This document shows positions 1,347 to 28,049 of a stretch of DNA of 32,000 nucleotides, piece by piece. The notes below the pieces were generated by a model. That model was not told the DNA's origin, did no database searches, and saw nothing but the letters and a program-made list of their open reading frames with translations. Source of the DNA: Candidatus Helarchaeota ASGARD archaeon Hel_GB_B (GTDB lineage: Archaea > Asgardarchaeota > Lokiarchaeia > Helarchaeales > HEL-GB-B); the NCBI GenBank assembly GCA_005191425.1, contig SUPR01000022.1, positions 7,494 through 39,493 on the forward strand. The letters run 5' to 3'. The stretch's first letter is position 1, and the number at the start of each line of letters is the position of its first letter. The translations under genes were made by a program, and so were the position numbers.

Positions 1347-2594
1347 TTGAAGAATTTTTTACAAATTGTTGCTCAGGTAATTATAATAGGTGGCTTAATA
1401 TTTTGGATTTTTCCGACAATTTTGATTTTAACGGGTGGAATTTTTGGAGGCCAGTCATTTGAAACGACATTAGATATGTTTCTGCCACAGTTTACTGGAT
1501 TTTCCGTAATAGTCCTAATTGTTTCTACAGTTTTGAAGTTATTTTTGGTTAAGAAGCGAAAATGGCTTTTATATTTTACATTGGTCATAGGATTAGTTCT
1601 AATATTTACAAATCTATTACCACTAACTTCACCATACATTGCGACTAGCGATTTCGATACAAAGTTTAAATCGGCACTTGGAAATGATTATATATCAAAA
1701 ATCCCACCTGAATTGCGTTCCCAATTTAGGACATATAAATTTTCATTATGGAATTATTATTATTATGGATTTCACGATTTTCAATGCAATTTGACGCTGG
1801 ACATACCTTATCTAAAAATAGGAAATGACACCTTCAAATTTGACCTGTATAGGCCAATTAATCAAGCAAAGAAATCCCCTGTTGTAATAGCGATACATGG
1901 TGGTGGTTGGAGAACGGGCGATAAAGGAATTGAAAATATGTTTCCTTTAAATAAGTACCTTGCGAGTCAAGGATATGTGGTTTGTGATATTCAATATGGA
2001 CTGGCACCCAATGGATATAACATGTCAGATATAGTCAGTAATATAGGTTTTTTTACAAAATTTTTAGAGAACAAATCTTCTGCATATAAAATAGACCTAA
2101 ATAAGACCTTTTTCTTAGGGAGGTCTGCAGGGGCGCACTTAGCACTTTTATCTGGGTTGGGTATTAAGAGCCCGCAATTTTCCGGAATTTTTGGGAAATC
2201 GATTAATGTTTCAGGGATTATTGACTTTTATGGGCCGACTAATTTATCAATTACATATGATTTGTTTGTTAGATATGGAGAACCATCAATATTTACCTTT
2301 TTAATGAATGGGACGCCAAGTTCAAATCCCCAATCATATCATAAATATTCCCCAATAAATATAATAAACACATCGGCACCACCAATATTAATTCTTCATG
2401 GTAAAAATGATAAAATCGTATCAATTTCAGAGTCGGAGGTTTTTAAGAATAAATGTGATTTACTGTCAGATACCTGTATATTGCTTGAATTTCCATTTGG
2501 TGGACATGGGTTCGATTATTTTTTTCAATCGCAATATAGTCAAATAATTACTTATTATATAGAGAGGTTTATTGGATATTTCAGTAATGTATAA
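1347..2594 (+). CDS. Membrane-anchored alpha/beta hydrolase (HSL-like carboxylesterase)
   Basis: HGGGW oxyanion motif, GRSAG nucleophile elbow, HGKND (Asp), GGHGF (His); about 3 N-terminal TM helices. The ORF track starts at 1314; TTG at 1347 after GGAGGTG (1327-1333) avoids the overlap and is the likelier start. Confidence 0.88.
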   Translation: MKNFLQIVAQVIIIGGLIFWIFPTILILTGGIFGGQSFETTLDMFLPQFTGFSVIVLIVSTVLKLFLVKKRKWLLYFTLVIGLVLIFTNLLPLTSPYIATSDFDTKFKSALGNDYISKIPPELRSQFRTYKFSLWNYYYYGFHDFQCNLTLDIPYLKIGNDTFKFDLYRPINQAKKSPVVIAIHGGGWRTGDKGIENMFPLNKYLASQGYVVCDIQYGLAPNGYNMSDIVSNIGFFTKFLENKSSAYKIDLNKTFFLGRSAGAHLALLSGLGIKSPQFSGIFGKSINVSGIIDFYGPTNLSITYDLFVRYGEPSIFTFLMNGTPSSNPQSYHKYSPINIINTSAPPILILHGKNDKIVSISESEVFKNKCDLLSDTCILLEFPFGGHGFDYFFQSQYSQIITYYIERFIGYFSNV

Positions 2595-2780
2595 TTATGT
2601 TCTATTAATTATAACAATTCTTTATTTTTAACCAAGTTGGAATTAATGTAAGTAAATAAATTATAGGTTGAAATAGTAATTACGAATTAATATAATAAAA
2701 AGAATTTGGATAGAAATGATTATATGGAAAAAAATAAAGAATTTATTTTATGATATTTTAGAATTTATTTAAAAATAGTT

Positions 2781-3959
2781 TTATTTCATTATTTTAGTAT
2801 CTCTACCCATCCCTATGGAGACAATATTATCGGATGTAACTTCATAGTCGCTAGGTGTTTCATGAGTAATATCTAAATTGACACCTTTTATTGCCTCAGA
2901 ACGTTCTATTCCTAATTTTTCAGGGGTAATACGATTGGTACCAGGATATTTCCATTCAAAAACTCCAGATTTGAAGACAGACTTAGGGATTTTTTTAGGT
3001 TCCTTCGACCCAAGAATTTCCACGTTTAAGCTATCGATAGGCATTGGGATACCATCGTCCCATTGTCGTTCAATTGATGCATGCCATATTTCAGGATGTT
3101 CGTCTTGCATCCATTTTACTCCAATATCTTCGATCCCTTTAATTGAAAAACAATGTGACTGAAAAAGACCCATTATTCGCAATTGATAATCACGACGTTT
3201 CATCATACTCATCATCTGTAAAGTACTGGACCAAGGGATCATTGCTGCATAAAAATCAGGTAATTTGTAAATGCGTTCCGTATTTACCATATCATACATA
3301 AGTCCCATAGCATCATAATTACTTAATTCACATATGATATTTATGGCACAAGAAAGCCAAACTATTGTAGAATGATAGGGAGACGACGACCATTGAGGAG
3401 TCCGCTCATTCCTAACATCTTTTAAGATATCCATGCAAGCATACGCACATTTTGTAAGATTTTTAGTCCGTTTAGGAATCTCGCGTAGTTTATAACCCAG
3501 TTTCATATGTCGCCTGTCTAGAAGTTCATCGTCCTCTTTAACACCAGCAAACCAAAAATCAGCAGGTAATCCGTTCTCCATATGACAATTAATAATGGTG
3601 AAAATTTTTTGAGACATGTCATCTACCAAAATAAATGAACTGTCAATACTTTCGCCATGTAATAACTTCATTGCACCTTGTTGAAGGTCGGATCTTGTAA
3701 GAATAGCAGGGGGAAATATAGTATAAGTTATAACTTTTTCTGGTTCCTTTATTTTACCATCAATTAATTCTTTTGAAGTCATTATGCTTTCAGTCATCCT
3801 AACCCGCATAATCTCTTCAATTATCTCCCTTAAGCTTCTAGTCGCTTTATTCCAAGTTTCCCAGCCAATTTCTTGGTGCATTCTCCAAACATGTCTTGCA
3901 ATTGGTAAATATTTTTTTGTTCTTAAAGAATCATCAATCTCGCCATAAGTATGAAGCAT
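2781..3959 (-). CDS. Hypothetical soluble protein, 392 aa
   Basis: Long ORF, richer in GC than its flanks, GAGGT upstream of the ATG, globular composition; no motif recognised. Confidence 0.85.
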   Translation of the reverse strand: MLHTYGEIDDSLRTKKYLPIARHVWRMHQEIGWETWNKATRSLREIIEEIMRVRMTESIMTSKELIDGKIKEPEKVITYTIFPPAILTRSDLQQGAMKLLHGESIDSSFILVDDMSQKIFTIINCHMENGLPADFWFAGVKEDDELLDRRHMKLGYKLREIPKRTKNLTKCAYACMDILKDVRNERTPQWSSSPYHSTIVWLSCAINIICELSNYDAMGLMYDMVNTERIYKLPDFYAAMIPWSSTLQMMSMMKRRDYQLRIMGLFQSHCFSIKGIEDIGVKWMQDEHPEIWHASIERQWDDGIPMPIDSLNVEILGSKEPKKIPKSVFKSGVFEWKYPGTNRITPEKLGIERSEAIKGVNLDITHETPSDYEVTSDNIVSIGMGRDTKIMK

Positions 3960-6852: not shown

Positions 6853-7191
6853 TTATAATAAAGAATTATTAAAGCTGTTTCTATTTATTATACCATAGTT
6901 AATCATTGCAATTGCAATTTTACCACAGCTTTCCATATCGATGTGTGGAATTATATCTTTCACTTTTTGAGGACTTATATTAGTCCCGCATGATTCTAAT
7001 TTTTTAAATTGGTCTAATGTTATATGGCAAATTAATTTATTGATACCCAATTCTCTAATCATTAGGGATAATTTATCATTTTCACTTTGTACAAATATCC
7101 CTTGAACCCCATCTCTTTTTGGAAGTATTATATTCCTTTTTTTTTCTGATTTCTTGAAAAAGTCAGTAATTATAGTTTGCTTTGAGACCAT
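6853..7191 (-). CDS. Small hypothetical protein with N-terminal PIP box (putative PCNA interactor)
   Basis: 112 aa; residues 5-12 QTIITDFF match Qxx(I/L/M)xxFF and are followed by a basic KKSEKKR stretch. Confidence 0.7.
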   Translation of the reverse strand: MVSKQTIITDFFKKSEKKRNIILPKRDGVQGIFVQSENDKLSLMIRELGINKLICHITLDQFKKLESCGTNISPQKVKDIIPHIDMESCGKIAIAMINYGIINRNSFNNSLL

Positions 7192-7464: not shown

Positions 7465-8457
7465 TTAATGCTTTTTAAATGTCTTTGAAATAATATTTTT
7501 GTTTACAATAAATGCATGATCGAATTTTTTTTCTAAGACATTAATAATATTTTCAAATGCGAGTTTAGCCATTTTAGTGCGTGTTTCAATAGTAGAAGAG
7601 CCGATATGGGGAGTAAGGACGACATTATCAAGTTTTAAAAGTGGATTATCATTACTGATAGGTTCAATAGTGTAGACATCAAGACCAGCTCCTGCAATAA
7701 TTTTGTTTTCGAGTGCCCAGATCAAGAATTTTTCATCGATAACTTTACCTCTGGAAATATTTATTATAAATGCTGTTTTCTTCATTAATTTTAATTCATT
7801 TTCGCCGATCATATTTTTAGTCTGGGGGTTTAATGGTACAGCTAAAATAATAAAATCAGATAATTTTAAAAGTTCAGATAATTCTTTAAATTCCATTGAA
7901 TAAAGTTTTTCTAATTCAAATTTTCTAGTACGACTGTAATAAATAATTTTCATATTAAATCCAACAGACCTTCTTGCAATAGCAGACCCAATACGTCCCA
8001 TTCCAATGATCCCAAGAGTTTTACTATGGACATCTCTACCTGCAAAAAAAAGTGGATGCCAATCCTTCCATTTATTGTCTAAAATAAAGTTATGGGCTTC
8101 GATAATTCTGCGGCTAATTGCCATAAGTAATGCCCAAGCAAGATCAGCCGTGGTCTCTGTTAATACTTCCGGGGTATTAGTAACGATAATATTTCGGTCT
8201 GTAGCTGCATCTATATCTATATTATCATATCCGACCGCGAAATTACTGATAACCTTAAGGTTTGGCCCAGCAGAGTCCATTATTTCGGCATCTATCTTAT
8301 TTCTTAAAGTACATATAATGCCATCAATACCCGGCACTAATTTAAGTAATTCTTTTTTAGATAATTTTCCTCCGGTATTAATATTAAACTTAAAATTAGT
8401 TCCAAACTTTTCCAAATTTTCAAATGGAAGTTTTCTAGTGATCAATATTTTATACAT
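7465..8457 (-). CDS. gyaR: D-2-hydroxyacid dehydrogenase, glyoxylate reductase type
   Basis: AVGYDNID, NTPEVLTETTADL, GMGRIG, INISRG, GLDV, LTPHIGS. Likely start is the ATG at 8457 (MYKILITRK) after GGTG; the ORF track start is 8505. Confidence 0.92.
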   Translation of the reverse strand: MYKILITRKLPFENLEKFGTNFKFNINTGGKLSKKELLKLVPGIDGIICTLRNKIDAEIMDSAGPNLKVISNFAVGYDNIDIDAATDRNIIVTNTPEVLTETTADLAWALLMAISRRIIEAHNFILDNKWKDWHPLFFAGRDVHSKTLGIIGMGRIGSAIARRSVGFNMKIIYYSRTRKFELEKLYSMEFKELSELLKLSDFIILAVPLNPQTKNMIGENELKLMKKTAFIINISRGKVIDEKFLIWALENKIIAGAGLDVYTIEPISNDNPLLKLDNVVLTPHIGSSTIETRTKMAKLAFENIINVLEKKFDHAFIVNKNIISKTFKKH

Positions 8458-8501
8458 AAGGTACACCAATTGGAATAAAAAATAAAATGTAAATACAATT
8501 T

Positions 8502-9203
8502 TCATTTAGTTGAGAAATAATTTAAGAGTCCGTAATATATCCCAAGAACCGCTTTGATCATAGAATCTATAAAATTTCGTATAACAAACATTTGTACAAT
8601 TAAAACAAAGATTATGGTAAAAACAATAGTCATTGTTGCAGCTAGTACCTCATGAGCAATATAAAAAGAAAAACCATTCATAAGTAATACCACAGTGATT
8701 ACGATCCTTAATACATTTGCACTATAGATACCCAATATCATAATAGAGCCACCAAGTAATTTTTTCCACCATTTTGTTGGAGTTGCAATCACAAGAGCTG
8801 TTAAAAGAGCTATAGCTTCAATACCAGTACAAAGTTTGATTACTTCTAAAGAAAAGGGATAGTCCAAGGGAGGGACATTTGGATAAATAATAACATGCCC
8901 AGCGTTTATAATAGTAAATGCAGGGGCTATATTGAAAATTGAAAGAAATTGCGATGCGCCTTCACTTGTTGCATATCGAAGCCATAAGTCAAATGTCCAG
9001 ATCTGTCCAGGTCCCCAACCATAAGGTATATTGAATAAAATATAGAAAAATTCAATAATTTCAGAGAGATACAAAATAAATAAAGTTAATAATATAACAG
9101 TACCAAAATAAATAATCGATTGGGTAAGAGTCCAACGTTCTGATTTGGAATCTTTTGGTGTTACATCAATAATTTTATCTTTATCAATATTATTTGACAT
9201 CAT
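8502..9203 (-). CDS. Exosortase/archaeosortase-family membrane transpeptidase
   Basis: Multi-TM protein with EVIKLCTGIE (Cys), NVLRI (Arg) and IAHE (His) catalytic triad pattern. Confidence 0.85.
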   Translation of the reverse strand: MMSNNIDKDKIIDVTPKDSKSERWTLTQSIIYFGTVILLTLFILYLSEIIEFFYILFNIPYGWGPGQIWTFDLWLRYATSEGASQFLSIFNIAPAFTIINAGHVIIYPNVPPLDYPFSLEVIKLCTGIEAIALLTALVIATPTKWWKKLLGGSIMILGIYSANVLRIVITVVLLMNGFSFYIAHEVLAATMTIVFTIIFVLIVQMFVIRNFIDSMIKAVLGIYYGLLNYFSTK

Positions 9204-13416: not shown

Positions 13417-13866
13417 TTATAACAATAATTTTTCTGCAATTTGCATTTTCTTTTTATAAGTCAATTTATCTGGTTCCTCAAATGATAATGCATGGGTCGG
13501 ACATATCTCTACACATTGAGGCTGTAAGGGCTCGCATAAATCACATTTAAAGACCCTACCAGTTGCGTCCAGACCAATAGCACCAAAAGGACATGCAATA
13601 GCACATGCTTTACAATTTATGCATTTATTTTTATCAATTATTACTCGACCAGTTTCATCTCGGCTGATGGCCCCAACGGTACAAACTTGCATACATACTG
13701 CATCGTCACACTGAAAACAATATATAGGCACATTTACAGCTTCCTTTACTTCAATTACTTCAATCCCCGATTTCATTGGATTCACTTCATCACCATGGTA
13801 TAAACTGCAAACTACTTCACATAATTTACACCCTATACACTTTTCAATATCAACGGTTAATATCAT
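13417..13866 (-). CDS. 4Fe-4S dicluster (HydN/DmsB-like) electron-transfer subunit
   Basis: CIGCKLCEVVC, CFQCDDAVCMQVC, CINCKACAIACP and CDLCEPLQPQCVEICP motifs; GGAG upstream. Confidence 0.92.
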   Translation of the reverse strand: MILTVDIEKCIGCKLCEVVCSLYHGDEVNPMKSGIEVIEVKEAVNVPIYCFQCDDAVCMQVCTVGAISRDETGRVIIDKNKCINCKACAIACPFGAIGLDATGRVFKCDLCEPLQPQCVEICPTHALSFEEPDKLTYKKKMQIAEKLLL

Positions 13867-20120: not shown

Positions 20121-22076
20121 TTAGATCACTTCATCAAATCGTTTCTTAACAAATGAAATTCTGAATGTATTGATTATAACTAATAAAGTAATTCCAAGGT
20201 CTCCTATCCCAACAGCCATCCATAGAGTCATCAGTCCTAGAAATGTTAGAATTATAAATAGAAATTTTAAAACAATTGTGGAATAGATATTTTCTTTCAT
20301 AATCTTATTTGTCTTTTTGCTTATGTCAAGTAAAGTTATAATTTTTCCGATGTTGTCATTCATTAAAATAACATCAGCAGTTTCTAGCGAAATATCACTT
20401 CCAATTCCACCCATTGCGATCCCAATATCTGCAGAGGCTAGAGCAGGGGCATCATTGATACCATCACCGACCATTGCAACTGTTTTATTTTTATTAATAA
20501 GGTTTTTAATAGTCTCTTGTTTTTCATCAGGTTTTAGCTCATAAAAAACTTGGTCTATTCCAAGTTCTTTTTGCAATGCTCTGACAGTATTTTTATTATC
20601 TCCTGAAATCATGATTGTTTTAATATTTCTAGCTTTTAGTTCATGGATTACTTGCTGGGAATAATCACGTATTGTATCCCGGAGTGAAATTAAACCAATG
20701 ATTTGACGACTATTTCCAAACAAGACTACAGTTTTTCCCTCATTTTGATATCGATTTAATAATTTTTCTGGAACGGATATTTTTAGTTCATCAAAGAGAG
20801 ATTTATTTCCAACATAAAATCTATTTCCATTAACTGAACCTGAAATACCTTTTCCGATAATAGATTTAAAAGATTCGATGGGTATTTCAGGTGATATCCC
20901 TCTTTTTTCTGCACCAGATACAATTGCTCTTGAAATAGGGTGTTCAGAGAGGTTTTCTAAAGAGGCAGCAATTTTAAACCATTGATCAAAGTCATTATTG
21001 AGTGAAATAATATCTTTAACTTCAAGAGAACCTTTAGTCAGAGTGCCAGTTTTATCAAATGCTATTATCTGTAATTTATTGAGGTCTTCGATAAATTTCC
21101 CACCTTTAATAAGTATTCCGTTTTTTGCGCCACTAGTCAAAGCAGAAATCATTGAAATTGGCATAGATAATGCAAGTGCACATGGACATGAGATCACTAA
21201 AATGATAAGTCCTTTATAAACCCATTCATTAATTGGTAATTGAAAAATTAAAGGTGGAATTAGCATCATAAAAATTGCAAGAAAAATCATTATAGGTGTA
21301 TAATATTTAGAGAATTTATCTATAAACCGCTGAGTTTTACTCTGCTTATTTCGAGCATTATCAATTATCTCTTTTATTTTGGCAAGGAGTGTTTGGTCTG
21401 AACTTTTAGTAACTTGGACTTCTAAATATCCCTCAAAATTAATAGTACCTGCAAATACAGTGTCCCCAATTTGCTTAAAAACAGGAATTGATTCACCGGT
21501 AAGAGAAGATTCATTAATTGTAGAAGCCCCTTTTATAATTATTCCGTCCAGAGGGATGCTGTTTCCAGGTTTTATTTGGATAATATCGCCTACTTTAACG
21601 CTGTGAGTATGCATCTCTTTAAATGACCCACTAATTTTTACCACAGCAATATCAGGCGCAATTTTCATCAATGAAGTAATTGAATTTTTTGACCGGTCTG
21701 TAGCATAATTTTCAAGGAATTCTGCAATAAAAAATAGGAACATTACACTCGCACCTTCGCCTCCATGACCAATTAAAAAAGACCCAATTGCAGCAATTGT
21801 CATTAAGATGTTAATAGTGATTTTGTGGTCAATTAAATTTGAAATACCTTCTTTTACTATATTATAACCACTTACTATAACTGCAACAGCAGCAAAAATC
21901 TGGCTAAATATGAATAAATTTAAAAAATTACCAAAAAGAATTGATAAAAATAAGAAAATGCTCGAAATTATTATAATAAATATGCTTTTTTTTCTAGTAT
22001 AATGCTCGATTTTTTTATCCAGAGCAATATTTTTTTCGCAGATTTCACAATATTTAATTTCCAATATTTGCACCAA
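20121..22076 (-). CDS. zntA: P1B-type heavy-metal ATPase, Zn/Cd/Pb (P1B-2) type
   Basis: TGES, CPC, DKTGTLT, SEHP, GDGINDAP; Lys in the penultimate TM (IVLKF) and Asp in the last TM (GDLG); short N-terminal CEIC. Confidence 0.9.
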   Translation of the reverse strand: MVQILEIKYCEICEKNIALDKKIEHYTRKKSIFIIIISSIFLFLSILFGNFLNLFIFSQIFAAVAVIVSGYNIVKEGISNLIDHKITINILMTIAAIGSFLIGHGGEGASVMFLFFIAEFLENYATDRSKNSITSLMKIAPDIAVVKISGSFKEMHTHSVKVGDIIQIKPGNSIPLDGIIIKGASTINESSLTGESIPVFKQIGDTVFAGTINFEGYLEVQVTKSSDQTLLAKIKEIIDNARNKQSKTQRFIDKFSKYYTPIMIFLAIFMMLIPPLIFQLPINEWVYKGLIILVISCPCALALSMPISMISALTSGAKNGILIKGGKFIEDLNKLQIIAFDKTGTLTKGSLEVKDIISLNNDFDQWFKIAASLENLSEHPISRAIVSGAEKRGISPEIPIESFKSIIGKGISGSVNGNRFYVGNKSLFDELKISVPEKLLNRYQNEGKTVVLFGNSRQIIGLISLRDTIRDYSQQVIHELKARNIKTIMISGDNKNTVRALQKELGIDQVFYELKPDEKQETIKNLINKNKTVAMVGDGINDAPALASADIGIAMGGIGSDISLETADVILMNDNIGKIITLLDISKKTNKIMKENIYSTIVLKFLFIILTFLGLMTLWMAVGIGDLGITLLVIINTFRISFVKKRFDEVI

Positions 22077-22215
22077 TTTAATAAAAAAATCAATTGTTTA
22101 TTAAATTAATGCTAAGAAAATAACAAATATTAATATTATATTATTAAGAATATATTATTTAATTAATAATAAAAATTTGTAAAATTAATTTTAAACCATA
22201 ATTAGAGGAACAAAA

Positions 22216-22620
22216 ATGCCAATTGTAAGTGTATCGCTCACTAGTACGATATTAAATGATTTAGAAAAGTTAATTAAAAAAAGAGGTTATTATAGCAGGT
22301 CTGAAGCTATAAGAGATGCCATTAGAGCTATGCTACTCGACTATGACTTGTCTTTAAAAAATGAGGATATGGTCTTTGCTATGATCATTGTAGTAAATGA
22401 TTTTGTCCGAGAGGATGTCGAAATTAGGTTGTCCAAATTAAGACACGAATTTAACAATTTAATTATTGAAGATATTCATCGACATATAAAAGAGCAGTAT
22501 TGCATCGAAATTTTTCTAGCCGAAGGAAGAAATTCAGAAGTCAGTGATCTGATAGGTAGGATTAGAGGAATAAAAGGAGTGAACCAAGTAAAATATTTAG
22601 TTTTACCATTTTTCTTATAA
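22216..22620 (+). CDS. nikR: NikR-family ribbon-helix-helix/ACT metalloregulator
   Basis: MPIVSVSL...SRSEAIRDAIR RHH domain; LRHEF, IHRH and YCIE provide the His/His/His/Cys ligand set. Confidence 0.88.
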   Translation: MPIVSVSLTSTILNDLEKLIKKRGYYSRSEAIRDAIRAMLLDYDLSLKNEDMVFAMIIVVNDFVREDVEIRLSKLRHEFNNLIIEDIHRHIKEQYCIEIFLAEGRNSEVSDLIGRIRGIKGVNQVKYLVLPFFL

Positions 22621-22709
22621 AATAAAGTATTATTTTTGAGAAAAGTTAAATTTAAAATAAAAATATTATCCAAAAAAATATTTTAAAAAAAAAGATAAGT
22701 TGTGATTAA

Positions 22710-24269
22710 TTAAATATCTTCATGAGTATATTCCATTGGTATATTTAATTTGGGTAATTGACTTGATATCATTTGATAATGTTTGTGAAATAGCAAAATT
22801 CTCCGAATATTTTCAACATTCATTAGTACTGCAATTATAATTAATACTATAAAGGGAACATACAATAGAGCACCTATCAGGATTATAATCATCCGGACAT
22901 CCCTGCCTAACCTGAAATAAGAGGAATTAGGAGTGGTCAGTTTTTTCATTAAGCCATCATATTTATCAGCGGTATAGCTGTTCATAAAAGACCCAATAAT
23001 AGCAAGAAACCCAATTAATAACATAACAAAATTCGGGGATAAATTGAACACAAAGATTGTTAGTCCAAAAAGTAATAGAGCATCAGCGTACCGGTCGAGA
23101 ACAGCATCAAACCAACCGCCAAATTCAGAGGTCTGCATTTTTAATCGGGCTATTTCGCCATCACAACCATCAATTATAGAAGCAAATTGAGCAAATACTG
23201 CGCCAATGATTAAGTTGGGATAACCACCTAAAAAGAAGAAAATGGAACCAATAGCAGCTAAGAGAAATGTAAACAAAGAAATTATATTGGGAGTTATATT
23301 TGTTTTTAAAAGTAATTTTGTAATTTTTGTAGAGATTGGTCTATTAATATAACGAGATACCGGTCCATCGGATTTCTTTTTAAGATTTGAGATTAATAGT
23401 CTTTTTGCCTTTTTGTAAGAGAGTTTGTCGTCGATGTCAATCCAATATTTATCCTTAATATCAAAAACTTTGGCATTACCTCTTTCAGCGAGAATTTTAA
23501 TTCCGCCGGATAATGAGTCATCACCATTTTCTATAGATTCTTCAAGAGCATCAAAGATGATTGGAGAACAAAGAAAGATCCCAGTATCAAAAGCATTAAA
23601 ATTGTCAATATTTTTGCCAATATCCAGAATTAAATCATCATATACTAATACTTTAGTAACATCATCAATGTCTATGTTTCTATTGGAATCGATATTATAG
23701 TCAACAACGAGTTTAATTTCTTCGTCTTCAATATCTTCCTTCAATAAATCTACCAAGATAGATGGGTCGAAAATGTGGTCAGACATTAATAATACAAAAT
23801 TTTCGTTGAGGTATTTTTTTGATTTAAGCACAGATATGCCGTTTCCTTTTTTCCATTCAAAATTATACAAGTAATTTATTTTAATATCCTTTTTTATGCT
23901 CAATTTGTCCAGAAATTCGCGTACTTTATGGTCGTTATAGCCAATAACAATATAAAAGTCAGTTAGGCCTGCTTCTTTAGCGCTCAATATGACCCGTTCA
24001 ATCAATTTTAGTCCTAAGATAGACAATAAAGGTTTTGACTCGCAGACATCAGATAGTCTACTTCCCCTGCCAGCAGCAATTATTAAGCATTTGGTTATCG
24101 GGAATTTTTCTTTATAGAGAATAAGTTTTTGTGTACTTTCACTAATACTATAAGTATTGTCTTTTGTATAAACATCTCTTATAGTAAATAAATTGTCGGA
24201 CTCGAATTCATTTGGTTCATCTTTAAATTGTGGAGTATTTTGAAAATCTGACGGAATAATCGAAATCAC
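22710..24269 (-). CDS. Bifunctional CTP:inositol-1-phosphate cytidylyltransferase / di-myo-inositol-phosphate-phosphate synthase (IPCT/DIPPS-like)
   Basis: LIIAAGRGSRL and MSDHIF NTP-transferase motifs; DGPVSRYINRPIS; DGCDGEIAR..G..FD...D CDP-alcohol phosphotransferase signature. Confidence 0.9.
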   Translation of the reverse strand: MISIIPSDFQNTPQFKDEPNEFESDNLFTIRDVYTKDNTYSISESTQKLILYKEKFPITKCLIIAAGRGSRLSDVCESKPLLSILGLKLIERVILSAKEAGLTDFYIVIGYNDHKVREFLDKLSIKKDIKINYLYNFEWKKGNGISVLKSKKYLNENFVLLMSDHIFDPSILVDLLKEDIEDEEIKLVVDYNIDSNRNIDIDDVTKVLVYDDLILDIGKNIDNFNAFDTGIFLCSPIIFDALEESIENGDDSLSGGIKILAERGNAKVFDIKDKYWIDIDDKLSYKKAKRLLISNLKKKSDGPVSRYINRPISTKITKLLLKTNITPNIISLFTFLLAAIGSIFFFLGGYPNLIIGAVFAQFASIIDGCDGEIARLKMQTSEFGGWFDAVLDRYADALLLFGLTIFVFNLSPNFVMLLIGFLAIIGSFMNSYTADKYDGLMKKLTTPNSSYFRLGRDVRMIIILIGALLYVPFIVLIIIAVLMNVENIRRILLFHKHYQMISSQLPKLNIPMEYTHEDI

Positions 24270-24864
24270 CTACTGTAATTTTATAATAATAGAGAGTCAA
24301 TTGACGTAAATGTATATCAAAACTGTGGAAAGATCCCAATCTAAAGTTAATTTATGTAAAAAGAGTGGAACTGATTGATAGTCAGTTTATTTCTTTAAAA
24401 TATAGTAAGGTTGGGTTCATTTCAAACAGCTTTAAATTGAAATTTAATCAATCAATTTTTCCACTCATAGACGCACATTAATAGTTTATATGAATTAATC
24501 AAATTTACAAGTTTAATATATAGAAATTAATATAAAAATTTTACTATAATGAAGACAAATTTGCCCTTTAAATTATATATAAAAAATATCAAAACCAAAT
24601 TACAAATTTTCAGAAAAAAGATTTTGGTAAAGAATTAATTTTAAGAAATTATTAATTACAGCAACAAATGATAATAAATGAAATATTTCATTTTTAATTT
24701 TGAAATATCAATTGTTATTAATAGATTATAGACGTTTTCAATTATTTTAAAATGTAAATATCGAGGAACAACTATAAAAACGAAATAGTTATTTCATTTT
24801 AATCTAAATTATAGATTTTAACTTGATCATGGAAAAATAAAAATTAAAAATTTGAGGCTCAATT

Positions 24865-26466
24865 TTAAAGGTGTAATTTGAATAGTGGATCACCATATAG
24901 CATATAACTAGCCCAGAGAATTTCGTTTAGCCCATATTTATTTACAATCATTTTTCTAGCATATCTTAGGGCGCTTCCGACAGAGTGCTCCCTTGAAACT
25001 AAGTTTTTATAGAATTCTATAGCGAAATCAATACTGATATCGTCATTAACATATGTAAATGTCCCAATATAATTTTTAATTCCACCCATTAAAAAGCCGG
25101 ATGCAATTCCAAAGATTTCACTCTGAAATTTTTTAGTATCACCAATTGATTCTGCACCGGATTCGCAGGCATTTGCAAATACAATCGGGGGTGCATTTAT
25201 TAATGCCATATCAGAAGCCTTCAAAATTTCATTTGTTTTTATATCAATTACCCACCCACTTTCACTGGGATTATTTTTATTGAAATAGGAATGCCCAGCA
25301 TAATGGACTAAATCATAGGTAGTCAAATCAGAAAATAATAATTGAGTGTTCACTTCTTTACCTTTTCTATATGTAATATTTATCCCATCTATTTTTGATA
25401 ATGCTTTATATATTGCATCACATTCCTTAATAGCTCCTTCTAAGGTTTCAGTTGGGTCTGCAATTAATAGGACATTTAATGGATATGATAAACTCCGCGT
25501 GGTAGAACTTTGGATATAAAATTTTGGAGAAACTACGACTTGCCGTCCAATGTTATATTTTAGACCAAAAAAATCACTACCATCATAACATAACTCCCAA
25601 GGTATATTTAAGAGATTATCGTCCAATTTTAAGAAAATATTCTCCGATGAAAACTTTTTTAAGCGATCCGAAACTTTGTCCAGCAAAATATTATAAATCG
25701 AAGCACCTAAATCCTTGATTCCTGAGAAATTTTCAGATTTACCAAATAATACGAAGTCTTTTAATGCATTTGAGAAAATTTTAAGTTGTTTATTTGAAAT
25801 ATTTTTTTCTTGAATTACAGAAATTGTTTCATTAGTTGTAAGATCAATATAATTAATATTACCTTTTCTTAAAACGCTTAATCTTATTGGAAATGATTTT
25901 TCAATTTTTAATTTTGCAGCTTGAAAAACGAAATTCTCAAAAAATTTGTTCCAATCACCATAGTTATAGAGAGAAAATATAATTTCAGTTAAATTAGTGG
26001 AAGAATTTAAATAATCAAATACTTTTTGGATCATTGATTGACTAACAGCCTCACTATTATTCTGACCTTTGCCGGTACCCATAGCTGGGAAAGCAATGCT
26101 ATGAAATCCTAATTCATCAGCTTTTTTCAAACAATAATAAGTAGCTAGCGAAACACCAAACGGTGTGACTACATCTCCTTTTTCTTCATCGAATGTAATA
26201 GCATGAAAAACCTTTTTAACAGGCTTTAAATTATAAGCATCGGTAATAATAATAGACCCAAGTCTAACCTTTTGATTTTTCAATTTTTCTAAAGCTTCTT
26301 TTTTGATTTTTTCTCCTGCCTTATCTAAAATAGCCCTAGCGACCCCATCATTCATAGTAAGTTTTATATCATCTGAATTTACAACCACATCAGTTTTTAA
26401 AGTAGTAATATCGCAATAACAAATAGAAACAGTAGTATTACCCACTTTAATAGATTTTTTTTCCAT
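24865..26466 (-). CDS. Macrodomain-CHAT (caspase-like protease) fusion protein
   Basis: N-terminal CDIT..VVN..GVARAI..VFHA..FPAMGTG (macro); C-terminal IPWEL, VHYAGH, FANACES, GFL.GG...IGT, WASYMLYGDP (CHAT). Confidence 0.9.
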   Translation of the reverse strand: MEKKSIKVGNTTVSICYCDITTLKTDVVVNSDDIKLTMNDGVARAILDKAGEKIKKEALEKLKNQKVRLGSIIITDAYNLKPVKKVFHAITFDEEKGDVVTPFGVSLATYYCLKKADELGFHSIAFPAMGTGKGQNNSEAVSQSMIQKVFDYLNSSTNLTEIIFSLYNYGDWNKFFENFVFQAAKLKIEKSFPIRLSVLRKGNINYIDLTTNETISVIQEKNISNKQLKIFSNALKDFVLFGKSENFSGIKDLGASIYNILLDKVSDRLKKFSSENIFLKLDDNLLNIPWELCYDGSDFFGLKYNIGRQVVVSPKFYIQSSTTRSLSYPLNVLLIADPTETLEGAIKECDAIYKALSKIDGINITYRKGKEVNTQLLFSDLTTYDLVHYAGHSYFNKNNPSESGWVIDIKTNEILKASDMALINAPPIVFANACESGAESIGDTKKFQSEIFGIASGFLMGGIKNYIGTFTYVNDDISIDFAIEFYKNLVSREHSVGSALRYARKMIVNKYGLNEILWASYMLYGDPLFKLHL

Positions 26467-26987
26467 AATATCATCTGTTTTTTTTATTAAAAATTATTTA
26501 GAATCTAGATTTATTAATTTTTTATCACATTTTTAATTAATATTTTTTTTCAAATAATAATTATTGTGATTTTTTCTCCATTTAAAATTTAAATAAAGAT
26601 AAGAATTAATTTGTTTTTAATTTTAATCAATTGGTTAGTCAAATTTTTTTTCATATTTCGTTATTTTAAAAGAATAATTAAGGTTTTCAAGAAAAAAGGG
26701 AAAAAAAGAAATAAGATCAGTGAAAAAATTTGGGTTATATGATATAAAATTTAAAAAATGAATTAATCTAAGTTTGTCTGTATTAGAAAAATGAGTTTAG
26801 ATGATATTATGAAATTAAAATTATATTCTAGATATGTATCATTATTAATAAAAAGGATTGATAATTAAAAGTCTAAAATATAGAATTTTTAATTAATTAA
26901 AAATCAGTATAAAAAGTTTAACTAAAATTAATAAAATAATATAATATATTGAGAGAAAAAATGGCTTGAATTAGTGAAATAAATTAT

Positions 26988-27860
26988 TTATAATAGCGCA
27001 GTTTTTAATAAATCTTTACATGGACATGTACGTTCTGTTGGAATTTTGGGTATAACTCGTTCTAGCAATTTTTTTAGATTTTCGGCATTTTTTTCCATGA
27101 CAGCCAAAATTTCTTCAATAGAGACGCTATAACGTTTGACATCTCCGCCACAATTTGGACATTTATCGGCATATTCAACAACGCCACATTTTTCACAAAT
27201 TCCTGCCCAGACATCATAATCAGTGATTGTTGCAATAGAGACATAACATAATTCCAATTCTCGAGCTAATGCAACTTCTGGATATACCGTCATACCAATA
27301 ATATCGCCACCCCATTGTCTAAACATCTTGGACTCAGCCCTGGTCGAAAATCTTGGCCCTTCAATACAGACATAAGTCCCACTATTATGGACTTTAATTC
27401 CTAAAGCTTTCGCTTCATTATAACATATTTCTCGTAATTCAGGACAGAATGGAGCAGCAACATCTATATGACAAACCTGTCCGCCTTCGTAAAATGTGTC
27501 TAATCTTTTTTTTGTCCTGTCAATAAATTGGTCTGTAATAACAAAATCACCCGTATCAAATCCTAACCTTAAACTCCCTACAGCCCCGGGACCTATAACC
27601 CTTGTAACTCCCAATTCCTTTAAAGCCCATAAATTCGCCCTATTAGGGACTTTATGTGGAGGAATTTTATGCCCCCTACCATGCCTTGGAATAAAGGCAA
27701 CTTTTTTACCCTTAAAAATTCCAACAGTTATTAAATCAGAAGTTCTTCCATATGGTGTATAAACTTTTAGGTCTATCGCATCCTCAAGTAATTCTGGGTC
27801 ATATACGCCAGTCCCACCAATTATACCAATTTCAGCAGTTTCATCTTTCCTTAAACTCAT
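26988..27860 (-). CDS. mtnP: S-methyl-5'-thioadenosine phosphorylase with a zinc-ribbon insertion
   Basis: IGIIGGTG, TPYG, RHG, EGPRFST.AES, GMT..PE..LA.E, TDYD, C-terminal CPC. Likely start is the ATG at 27860 (track start 27866). Confidence 0.95.
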   Translation of the reverse strand: MSLRKDETAEIGIIGGTGVYDPELLEDAIDLKVYTPYGRTSDLITVGIFKGKKVAFIPRHGRGHKIPPHKVPNRANLWALKELGVTRVIGPGAVGSLRLGFDTGDFVITDQFIDRTKKRLDTFYEGGQVCHIDVAAPFCPELREICYNEAKALGIKVHNSGTYVCIEGPRFSTRAESKMFRQWGGDIIGMTVYPEVALARELELCYVSIATITDYDVWAGICEKCGVVEYADKCPNCGGDVKRYSVSIEEILAVMEKNAENLKKLLERVIPKIPTERTCPCKDLLKTALL

Positions 27861-28049
27861 CACCAATCACTTCTAAATACTATGGATAATAAAATTTTGA
27901 GATATTTGATAGAAAAGATTTAATTCTAAAAGAACTGATCCAAATTATTATATATAATTTTTTCAAGTCCAAAAAATCAATTTTGAAAAAATTGAATAGT
28001 ATTTGATTTATTAAGTGAAGTTTCAAGATTTTTAATATTTTGAAAGTAA

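Follow-up and report, generated by a model that had tools for sequence, protein, structure and literature searches.

The window analysed here, a stretch of 32,000 nucleotides from contig SUPR01000022.1 of the Asgard archaeon Candidatus Helarchaeota Hel_GB_B, codes for a protein of 533 amino acids (aa) that joins an N-terminal macrodomain to a C-terminal CHAT protease module and is termed Macro-CHAT in the following. It is encoded by a single open reading frame (ORF; 24865-26466, minus strand), with which no other long frame in the ORF list of the window competes. An earlier note, written by a model from the letters alone, had described a two-module protein without TPR or NACHT sensor and had proposed that ADP-ribose (ADPR) or a related ligand switches on a caspase-like protease. 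The architecture holds up: both domains lie above their Pfam cut-offs (Macro, PF01661, residues 29-143, E 4.7e-18, 65.7 bits versus a cut-off of 22; CHAT, PF12770, residues 252-526, E 4.7e-26, 92.3 bits versus a cut-off of 24, profile positions 2-289 of 289), a Pfam scan of the protein found neither a TPR nor a NACHT domain, and every motif quoted in the note was recovered in its place (Table 1). Weaker matches to other clan-CD peptidases, Peptidase_C25 and C14, overlap the CHAT module (Peptidase_C14 at E 0.017, under the cut-off), and NCBIfam yields sub-threshold matches only, to ADPR-binding and deacetylase macro families.

With a GC content of 0.305 versus 0.20 and 0.15, the gene stands out from the 595-nt and 521-nt spacers on its two sides; an isolation by AT-rich spacers of about 520-600 nt, as reported before, is thus borne out by measurement. 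A search of Rfam over positions 22000-29000 gave no match at E values up to 0.1, and the upstream spacer presumably contains the gene's own promoter. Among public sequencing runs, no RNA run holding the gene was listed.

In public data, full-length orthologues form about 19 clusters, with lengths of 531-542 aa and identities of 54-72%; their source names, Helarchaeota, Lokiarchaeota or Promethearchaeota, agree with the Asgard origin that had been considered probable. Mean column identity in the orthologue alignment amounts to 71%, and mean pairwise identity is higher in the CHAT part (70%) than in the macro part (59%). Judged by this number of orthologues, by their column identity and by the invariance of D19, H388, H392 and C434, Macro-CHAT is a real, conserved protein, far beyond chance. 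An AlphaFold2 (AF2) model of the whole chain reaches a pLDDT of 87.8 and a pTM of 0.73.

Table 1. Features of the Macro-CHAT gene and its surroundings (positions in the window)
Feature	Position	Strand	Evidence or remark
Macro-CHAT gene, 533 aa plus stop, monocistronic	24865..26466	-	ORF list; Pfam Macro and CHAT; orthologues with identical start MEKKSIKVG
Macrodomain module, residues 1-188	25903..26466	-	Pfam 29-143; AF2 model; Foldseek
D19-I20 in CDIT, position of the adenine-contacting Asp	26407..26412	-	invariant in 39/39 Macro-CHAT proteins; aligns with GDIT of TTHA0132
N30-S31-D32-D33, replaces hydrolase NAAN	26368..26379	-	alignment of 39 family members
M38-N-D-G-V42, loop 1 replacing GGGV	26341..26355	-	alignment; only M38, G41, V42 kept
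F126-P-A-M-G-T-G-K-G-Q135, phosphate-binding loop 2	26062..26091	-	alignment
Extended CHAT module, residues 189-533	24868..25902	-	homologue and AFDB model alignments begin at residues 189-193; Foldseek
Beta strands of residues 192-220 (FPIRLSVLRKGNINYIDLTTNETISVIQE), conserved, central to the predicted homodimer interface	25807..25893	-	alignment; dimer model
G307-R-Q-V-V-V-S313, invariant strand, modelled as paired with 212-220 of the second copy	25528..25548	-	alignment; dimer model
V387-H-Y-A-G-H392, H388 and H392 invariant	25291..25308	-	family alignment
A431-N-A-C-E-S436, C434 as catalytic Cys	25159..25176	-	invariant in 49 CHAT sequences
Upstream spacer, 521 nt, GC 0.15	26467..26987		composition; no Rfam match
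Downstream spacer, 595 nt, GC 0.20	24270..24864		composition; no Rfam match; no ORF of at least 50 aa
Sugar-nucleotidyltransferase-like and CDP-alcohol phosphatidyltransferase fusion (neighbour)	22710-24269	-	adjoins the 595-nt spacer

The macrodomain and the CHAT protease module

Pfam and Foldseek assign a three-layer alpha/beta/alpha macro fold to the N-terminal module. In the AF2 model a long helix (residues 171-191) ends this module and runs without a linker into the CHAT module. The nearest solved relatives are TTHA0132, an uncharacterised protein, PARP14 macro2/3 and PARP9 by sequence, and macroH2A1.1, PARP15 macro2, PARP14 macro3, PARP9 macro2, the hydrolase Af1521 and TTHA0132 by fold (Foldseek, TM 0.8-0.87 by target); most of the fold matches are thus of the macroH2A/PARP reader type.

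The 39 Macro-CHAT proteins that were aligned, archaeal and bacterial, fall into three clades at only about 25-30% identity. D19 and I20 are invariant throughout; in loop 2 the same holds for P127, A128 and G130, and very nearly for G132. Q135 is invariant in the Asgard clade. The signature of MacroD-type hydrolases (NAAN, GGGV in loop 1 and ISTG[IV][YF]G[FY]P) is replaced by NSDD, MNDGV and GTGKGQ. The family consensus at the NAAN site is [NS]-[SA]-[DE]-x: position 32 is acidic in 38 of the 39 proteins (the exception, P0005, has Ala), and position 33, which corresponds to the hydrolase Asn, varies among D, N, A, V and H. The bacterial clades carry an insert of four residues at loop 1. As far as the alignment goes, Macro-CHAT has kept the elements of an ADPR pocket and lost the hydrolase signature of the MacroD type.

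The same genome also codes for a standalone macro protein of 175 aa (L017) with the complete MacroD signature (VNAAN, GGGV, ISTGIFGYP), which scores 142 bits with the Pfam Macro profile versus 66 for Macro-CHAT; its matches to MacroD2, MacroD1 and YmdB have E values of roughly 1e-35 to 1e-38. Given this separate, complete enzyme, eraser and reader-like macrodomains are held apart in the genome, and the sequences support a non-catalytic sensor in Macro-CHAT. The reader-like character that the earlier note gave to the macrodomain is thus supported, its binding-site residues being invariant over three clades and the hydrolase Asn and GGG lost or variable, although the loss of NAAN and GGG is no proof that catalysis is lost.

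It is rather improbable that Macro-CHAT is instead a bifunctional enzyme, whose macrodomain would act via acidic residue 32 as an unusual hydrolase that takes off ADPR or processes an ADPR derivative, either alongside the protease or by destroying the signal of the protease. Such an activity would agree with the conservation of residue 32 and of the M-D loop in all three clades, with the Asn that many members carry at position 33, and with the annotation of homologues as O-acetyl-ADPR deacetylases in some sources. These annotations are automatic, however, and the MacroD signature is absent from Macro-CHAT down to the aromatic residue after loop 2, whereas a complete MacroD enzyme, with 142 versus 66 bits in the Pfam comparison, is found elsewhere in the genome.

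The CHAT module comprises an N-terminal beta subdomain (residues 192-222), helices and a caspase-like core (276-533). H388, H392 and C434 are invariant in the 39 Macro-CHAT proteins, and over 49 CHAT sequences each of the two His residues is conserved to 90% or more. On the pattern of the caspase/CHAT fold, H392, at the G-H position, is presumed to be the catalytic His. The CHAT His and Cys, which had been noted as intact, are thus invariant in the orthologues, and with an intact His-Cys dyad the protease is predicted to be competent. By fold, the module matches separase (9hn5) and Csx29 (7zoq, 8d9f and 8eey) in Foldseek.

Apart from the catalytic residues, conservation is high at the start of the module, where P193, R195, L199, R200, N205, Y206, D208, T210, T214, I215, S216 and I218 are invariant. 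This segment forms part of a predicted homodimer interface, which was modelled for residues 189-533 only. The homodimer model reached an ipSAE of 0.60 versus 0.00 for the best of three controls; when the tool was calibrated, 21 of 30 proteins whose structures are pairs of one chain attained its mark, as against none of the 23 whose structures are single chains. At least 95% of contacts were common to the runs, with a partner pLDDT of at least 77. The predicted interface involves residues 192-195, 210-220, 278-280, 307-314, 459-466 and 524-528 and overlaps the invariant, non-catalytic blocks T210, T214-I215-S216, F278-L279-K280, G307-S313 and Y524-G525, a coincidence that lends independent support to the dimer. 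Oligomer modelling, which the earlier note had called for, accordingly yields a CHAT-module homodimer that passes its controls in the form without ligand; the model supports binding between two copies but does not show it.

Distribution, origin and relatives of the family

Within the window's own Asgard order, Helarchaeota by the source names, four intact copies of Macro-CHAT and one pseudogene occur in seven species genomes. A sample of 299 further genomes, drawn from at least 29 families of the phylum, contained none. In a genome of the same genus (G001), a CHAT remnant (L026:2691-3629, minus strand) contains seven in-frame stops and no detectable macro part. It is 53% identical to the window's protein, and hence more distant than orthologues from another family, and may represent a long-decayed pseudogene or contamination introduced by binning.

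A scan of 1.84 billion cluster representatives and a profile search brought up bacterial Macro-CHAT proteins of equal size and layout. They form one clade of Fimbriimonadaceae/Armatimonadota (P0203 and P0209-P0220) and a second, more divergent group (P0222-P0229); in full-length comparison, both show 25-30% identity with the archaeal protein. A query with the macro region only returned six proteins; the word index limits the sensitivity of this search, which is no census of Macro-CHAT.

In a tree of the CHAT module, the archaeal clade and the bacterial Macro-CHAT clade are each supported at 99%, the latter with one FHA-CHAT protein inside. The Asgard and bacterial clades are not sisters in the free tree, yet the branches that separate them have only 80-86% support, and a tree constrained to a single Macro-CHAT clade was better by 11.4 log-likelihood units (approximately unbiased test, p 0.65). 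Since the constrained tree had the higher likelihood, separate origins of the Asgard and bacterial fusions were not concluded. On the simplest reading of these sequences, the fusion arose once and then moved between bacteria and the archaeal order. A transfer from bacteria to archaea is favoured, though not established, by the narrow archaeal range and by the bacterial nearest relatives of the CHAT module. The restriction to one order, together with the bacterial relatives, also implies that Asgard archaea probably gained Macro-CHAT laterally and did not inherit it as an ancestral trait that bears on eukaryote origins, for which a protein confined to one Asgard order and apparently shared laterally with bacteria carries less weight.

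The slot taken by the macrodomain is occupied by other domains elsewhere. The closest CHAT paralogue in the window's genome (contig C124) is a 554-aa fusion of a Ras-family GTPase with CHAT (L012:694-2355, plus strand), which has the same layout at 37% identity, is directly followed by a gene for a standalone Arf/Ras-like small GTPase (L012:2460-2933, plus strand) and might be an Asgard caspase-like protease that is switched by GTP. In G002 (contig C119), a relative from the same order, a 523-aa CHAT-TIR fusion is encoded (L035:2067-3635, plus strand), the TIR domain of which also matches ThsB_TIR. The N-terminal slot contains an FHA domain in P0228 and a Peptidase_M17_N domain of macro fold in P0177 and P0232, and bacterial CHAT relatives carry CheY receivers (P0044, P0053), adenylate cyclase, SnoaL, kinase or TPR domains. 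The order is reversed in the Saprospiraceae protein P0208 (L034:1322-2968, plus strand), where a Peptidase_C14 domain (residues 13-222) precedes a macrodomain (283-390) of the same divergent subtype as in Macro-CHAT (VSSDD...FPAxxTG); a gene of the sigma-70 family precedes it by 120 bp. Judging from these architectures, i.e., the varied slot domains and the reversed C14-Macro protein, the CHAT module serves quite generally as the output part of signalling devices made of one protein, and macrodomains were paired with caspase-fold proteases at least twice.

The slot domains also bear on how the macrodomain might serve the protease. Without any gating of catalysis, a macrodomain could recruit the CHAT module to mono- or poly-ADP-ribosylated proteins, for which the modification would be the mark for cleavage. 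Among the nearest solved relatives, macrodomains 2 and 3 of PARP14, macrodomain 2 of PARP9 and macroH2A1.1 bind ADP-ribosylated proteins, and FHA, the slot domain of P0228, is a phosphothreonine reader in a protein that falls inside the bacterial Macro-CHAT clade. The Ras and CheY domains found in the slot are switches, however, not readers, and no linked ADP-ribosyltransferase was found in the 12 distinct loci examined (the window and 11 others), and we consider a protease directed by its reader unlikely.

A further CHAT protein of the window's genome (contig C156; L011:199-2328, plus strand) has 710 aa and combines an N-terminal coiled coil with CHAT; a match to Snf7/ESCRT-III (E 5e-4) lies below the cut-off.

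Gene neighbourhoods and candidate partners

The best clue to the substrate of the protease is a bacterial operon. At four bacterial loci (L030:6001-10215, L019, L031 and L033), which span two clades with a mutual identity of only 39%, Macro-CHAT is followed by a sigma factor of the extracytoplasmic function (ECF) type and then by a soluble zf-HC2 protein, with a spacing that ranges from overlap to 32 bp. At L030 this pair occupies positions 7605-8926. The ECF sigma factor lies above the cut-off of TIGR02937 and is 43% identical between the two clades, and the zf-HC2 protein is anti-sigma-like and has no transmembrane segment. Upstream of this operon, which is that of Armatimonadota and a second clade, are an unknown gene for 289-319 aa and an Orn/DAP decarboxylase gene. 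The next gene in two of these loci is nicotinate-phosphoribosyltransferase-like (NAPRT-like), and at a fifth bacterial locus a NUDIX gene lies directly downstream of Macro-CHAT. The NAPRT-like and NUDIX neighbours lend an NAD-metabolism flavour to the bacterial loci, and the turnover of ADPR or NAD that they suggest would also suit a bifunctional enzyme.

The linkage of the protease to an ECF sigma/anti-sigma pair is found in the bacterial sister clades and not at the archaeal gene; to our knowledge, archaea have no sigma factors. The interpretation put forward earlier, an ADPR-responsive protease in an Asgard archaeon, is supported in part, and the best clue to the substrate comes from the bacterial sigma/anti-sigma operon, which could not be seen from the window.

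The archaeal gene is monocistronic and resides in a chromosomal housekeeping setting, not in a defence island. Beyond the downstream spacer lies the fusion gene listed in Table 1, the product of which presumably resembles the bifunctional IPCT/DIPPS enzyme of di-myo-inositol-phosphate synthesis. The other flank is formed by an MTAP-type phosphorylase gene, and a B12-radical-SAM gene and other housekeeping genes follow further out. Four other archaeal loci share a block in which TauE, DsbD_2 and Fer4 genes lie on one side of Macro-CHAT and HAD, AFOR, UvrA, BFN and UvrB genes on the other. In every one of them Macro-CHAT runs divergent or convergent to the adjacent genes. The closest orthologue (L001) is found in yet another gene setting. 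A conserved partner beside the archaeal gene was considered and rejected, because the orientations are non-operonic and the neighbours in the window and at L001 differ, so that the shared block reflects kinship synteny.

TIR, sirtuin and ADP-ribosyltransferase genes were not found among the 20 larger ORFs of the window that were scanned, a set that excludes several ORFs of at least 90 aa, namely 886-1344, 6853-7191, 8502-9203 and 13417-13866, the cut ORF 1-315 and small overlapping frames. Within this scope the window indeed lacks a signal generator, and the expectation that partners act in trans fits the archaeal loci, which have no adjacent partner, and the TIR and SIR2 genes present elsewhere in the genome. 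These genes code for a WD40 propeller joined to TIR_2 (L021:17-1528, plus strand), for a TIR protein with leucine-rich repeats (TIR-LRR; L022, about 1480-3168, plus strand) and for two sirtuins of about 260 aa each in tandem (contig C61:3156-4502; L024/L025). Sirtuins, as a source of O-acetyl-ADPR, and the WD40-TIR and TIR-LRR proteins are possible sources of a ligand in trans. A PARP (PF00644) search of the same genome (G000) gave no match, but it matched no control genome either and is therefore uninformative. The number of TIR genes is 5, 6 and 11 in relatives with Macro-CHAT versus 1 (below the cut-off) and 2 in those without. A co-variation of TIR and SIR2 genes with Macro-CHAT over these five relatives was set aside, as the genomes are few and confounded by kinship.

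These TIR proteins bring to mind a split, Thoeris-like system, in which a virus would trigger a TIR protein encoded elsewhere to make an ADPR-derived signal, and Macro-CHAT would respond by indiscriminate proteolysis leading to death or dormancy. Both halves of such a device have precedents, a macro sensor in type II and a caspase-like effector in type IV Thoeris. The two TIR proteins of the genome, the higher TIR counts in relatives with Macro-CHAT, the CHAT-TIR fusion with its match to ThsB_TIR and an accessory gene's patchy presence, including the pseudogene in G001, would fit as well. The TIR counts, however, carry the reservations just given, and no TIR gene is adjacent to Macro-CHAT in the 12 loci. 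PADLOC matched no defence-system model and no Thoeris ThsA model, the best hits being BovA and DarG at E of about 0.02, and the bacterial sigma/anti-sigma pairing suggests a transcriptional output, not killing. An abortive-infection effector is of low probability in our view, and the syntenic housekeeping neighbourhood speaks against it.

Proposed mechanism and relation to known systems

We propose that Macro-CHAT is a ligand-switched, dimeric cysteine protease, the macrodomain of which senses an ADPR-containing molecule, and the output of which would be the cleavage of a specific regulator; we give this proposal an even chance. The protein would function in the cytoplasm as a one-protein sensor-effector, with the macrodomain as the input domain of a CHAT cysteine protease that probably works as a symmetric homodimer. 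Binding of the ligand, be it free ADPR, sirtuin-derived O-acetyl-ADPR or a TIR-made ADPR derivative, would bring the His392/Cys434 dyad into its active state, and the activated protease would cut one or a few specific regulatory proteins. In bacteria, the candidate substrate is the soluble zf-HC2 anti-sigma factor encoded just downstream, or its ECF sigma factor, and a signal of NAD breakdown would be converted into a transcriptional response, as Csx29 does via Csx30 and CASP-sigma. In the archaeon, the protease would cut a regulator whose gene lies elsewhere. Architecture, pattern of conservation, fold, distribution and gene context are results of the analysis; which ligand binds, how it gates the protease, whether activation depends on the dimer and what is cut we infer from architecture and analogy.

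A more far-reaching version of this proposal, which we regard as doubtful, is that Macro-CHAT is a cell-autonomous sensor of NAD breakdown and not an immune effector, and cleaves an anti-sigma factor in bacteria or, in the one Asgard order that probably acquired the gene laterally, an archaeal regulator. ADPR or O-acetyl-ADPR would accumulate as sirtuins, TIR proteins or stress consume NAD, and would act on a pre-formed or ligand-induced dimer to trigger site-specific cleavage of the regulator; the cut anti-sigma factor would then switch on an ECF regulon that includes NAD salvage through the NAPRT-like gene. If true, archaea would have in Macro-CHAT their first signalling protease of caspase fold that is gated by a metabolite, and prokaryotes would have a counterpart to the connection that exists in eukaryotes between ADPR signalling and caspase-type proteolysis.

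Several observations weigh against a ligand-switched protease with a non-catalytic sensor. Asn persists at position 33 in 8 of the 19 Asgard orthologues, as it does in the bacterial group P0222-P0229, and residue 32, acidic in all proteins but one, could leave room for other chemistry. Y167, at the position of the usual adenine-stacking aromatic residue, is not conserved in the bacterial clades. The pass of the dimer model reflects the model's own confidence and, given solved caspase-fold dimers, may partly be memory. The archaeal gene has no conserved partner, so that the sigma/anti-sigma model cannot be transferred to it directly. Finally, the same-genus genome G001 contains only a decayed copy; the gene can thus be lost, and its function is dispensable.

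The concept of a sensor domain that controls such a protease has clear precedents in type II and type IV Thoeris, SAVED-CHAT and Craspase. In type IV Thoeris, N7-cADPR, an ADPR derivative made by a TIR protein, activates a caspase-like protease (Rousset et al., 10.1101/2024.10.24.620036, Science 2025). Like Macro-CHAT, the type IV effector ThsE/PsCaspase is a protease of the caspase superfamily with a fused sensor and a predicted dimer, and ThsE is switched by an NAD-derived molecule of the ADPR type. In contrast, type IV Thoeris consists of a two-gene operon with TIR in defence islands, cleaves indiscriminately and combines a C14-type caspase with a C-terminal sensor, whereas Macro-CHAT pairs a CHAT protease with an N-terminal macrodomain and lies in a housekeeping setting without an adjacent TIR gene or a corresponding operon. 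In type II Thoeris, according to the same paper (10.1101/2024.10.24.620036), a Macro domain senses His-ADPR. The type II effector ThsA (PMC11204291; Sabonis et al.) likewise has a macrodomain fused to an effector, and this macrodomain is a non-catalytic receptor of an ADPR signal; yet the ThsA effector is a membrane-disrupting transmembrane module, and Macro-CHAT is a protease with neither a Thoeris match in PADLOC nor a ThsB neighbour.

Among CHAT proteases, Csx29 cleaves Csx30 and thereby frees an ECF sigma factor (PMC10028731), and DdvA is a TPR-CHAT anti-sigma factor (PMC11506125). The bacterial Macro-CHAT operon mirrors both the Csx29-Csx30-CASP-sigma module (PMC10028731) and DdvA (PMC11506125). 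Csx29 of Craspase (PDB 8EEX/8EEY, 7ZOQ and 8D9F) also shares with Macro-CHAT the CHAT fold, the His-Cys dyad and, as proposed here, allosteric activation, and the bacterial members resemble it in being linked to genes for an ECF sigma factor and for the inhibitor of that factor. Csx29 is controlled by target RNA via Cas7-11, has TPRs and is a monomer in its complex, whereas Macro-CHAT has a macrodomain as input, no link to CRISPR and a predicted homodimer. The SAVED-CHAT protein of type III-B CRISPR (10.1101/2023.06.23.546230) is likewise a sensor domain joined to CHAT, in which the ligand switches on specific cleavage; its SAVED sensor, its ligand cyclic oligoadenylate, its filaments and the PCaspase that it cleaves and whose gene lies nearby have no equivalent in Macro-CHAT.

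A computational survey (Kaur, Iyer, Burroughs, Aravind 2021, PMC8195603) described bacterial EACC2-caspase proteins that end in a macrodomain and are encoded near ECF sigma genes. In this family an EACC2 domain stands at the N-terminus, the caspase is C14-type and the macrodomain is C-terminal, in contrast to Macro-CHAT with its N-terminal macrodomain, CHAT module and archaeal clade. P0208, in which C14 and Macro occur beside a sigma-70 gene, may belong to the EACC2-caspase family. The reader macrodomains of PARP14 (macro2/3), PARP9 (macro2) and macroH2A1.1, as well as TTHA0132 (3Q71, 4ABK, 5AIL, 1ZR3/3IID, 2DX6), have a loop 2 of the same FPAxGTG type, and PARP14 macro2 shares with Macro-CHAT the VNS- start at the NAAN position; these domains are found in PARPs, in a histone or as standalone proteins, none is fused to a protease, and their identity to residues 1-188 is only 18-32% (Foldseek). 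In the literature searched, the CHAT family with N-terminal macrodomain, its archaeal clade and the sigma/anti-sigma operon were not described.

If the macrodomain gates or aims the protease, an ADPR reader and a caspase-fold protease are united in an untried combination, and the control of caspase-like proteases by NAD signals, as in type IV Thoeris, would extend beyond defence islands and into archaea. Macro-CHAT is a small, soluble, single chain of about 530 aa that should express readily, and its bacterial members offer a candidate substrate, the anti-sigma factor, together with a read-out, the ECF sigma factor.

Elsewhere in the window, the interval 29750-31882 (minus strand) codes for 710 aa in which DUF3712 occurs twice and LEA_2 is matched weakly; such domains are known chiefly from eukaryotes.

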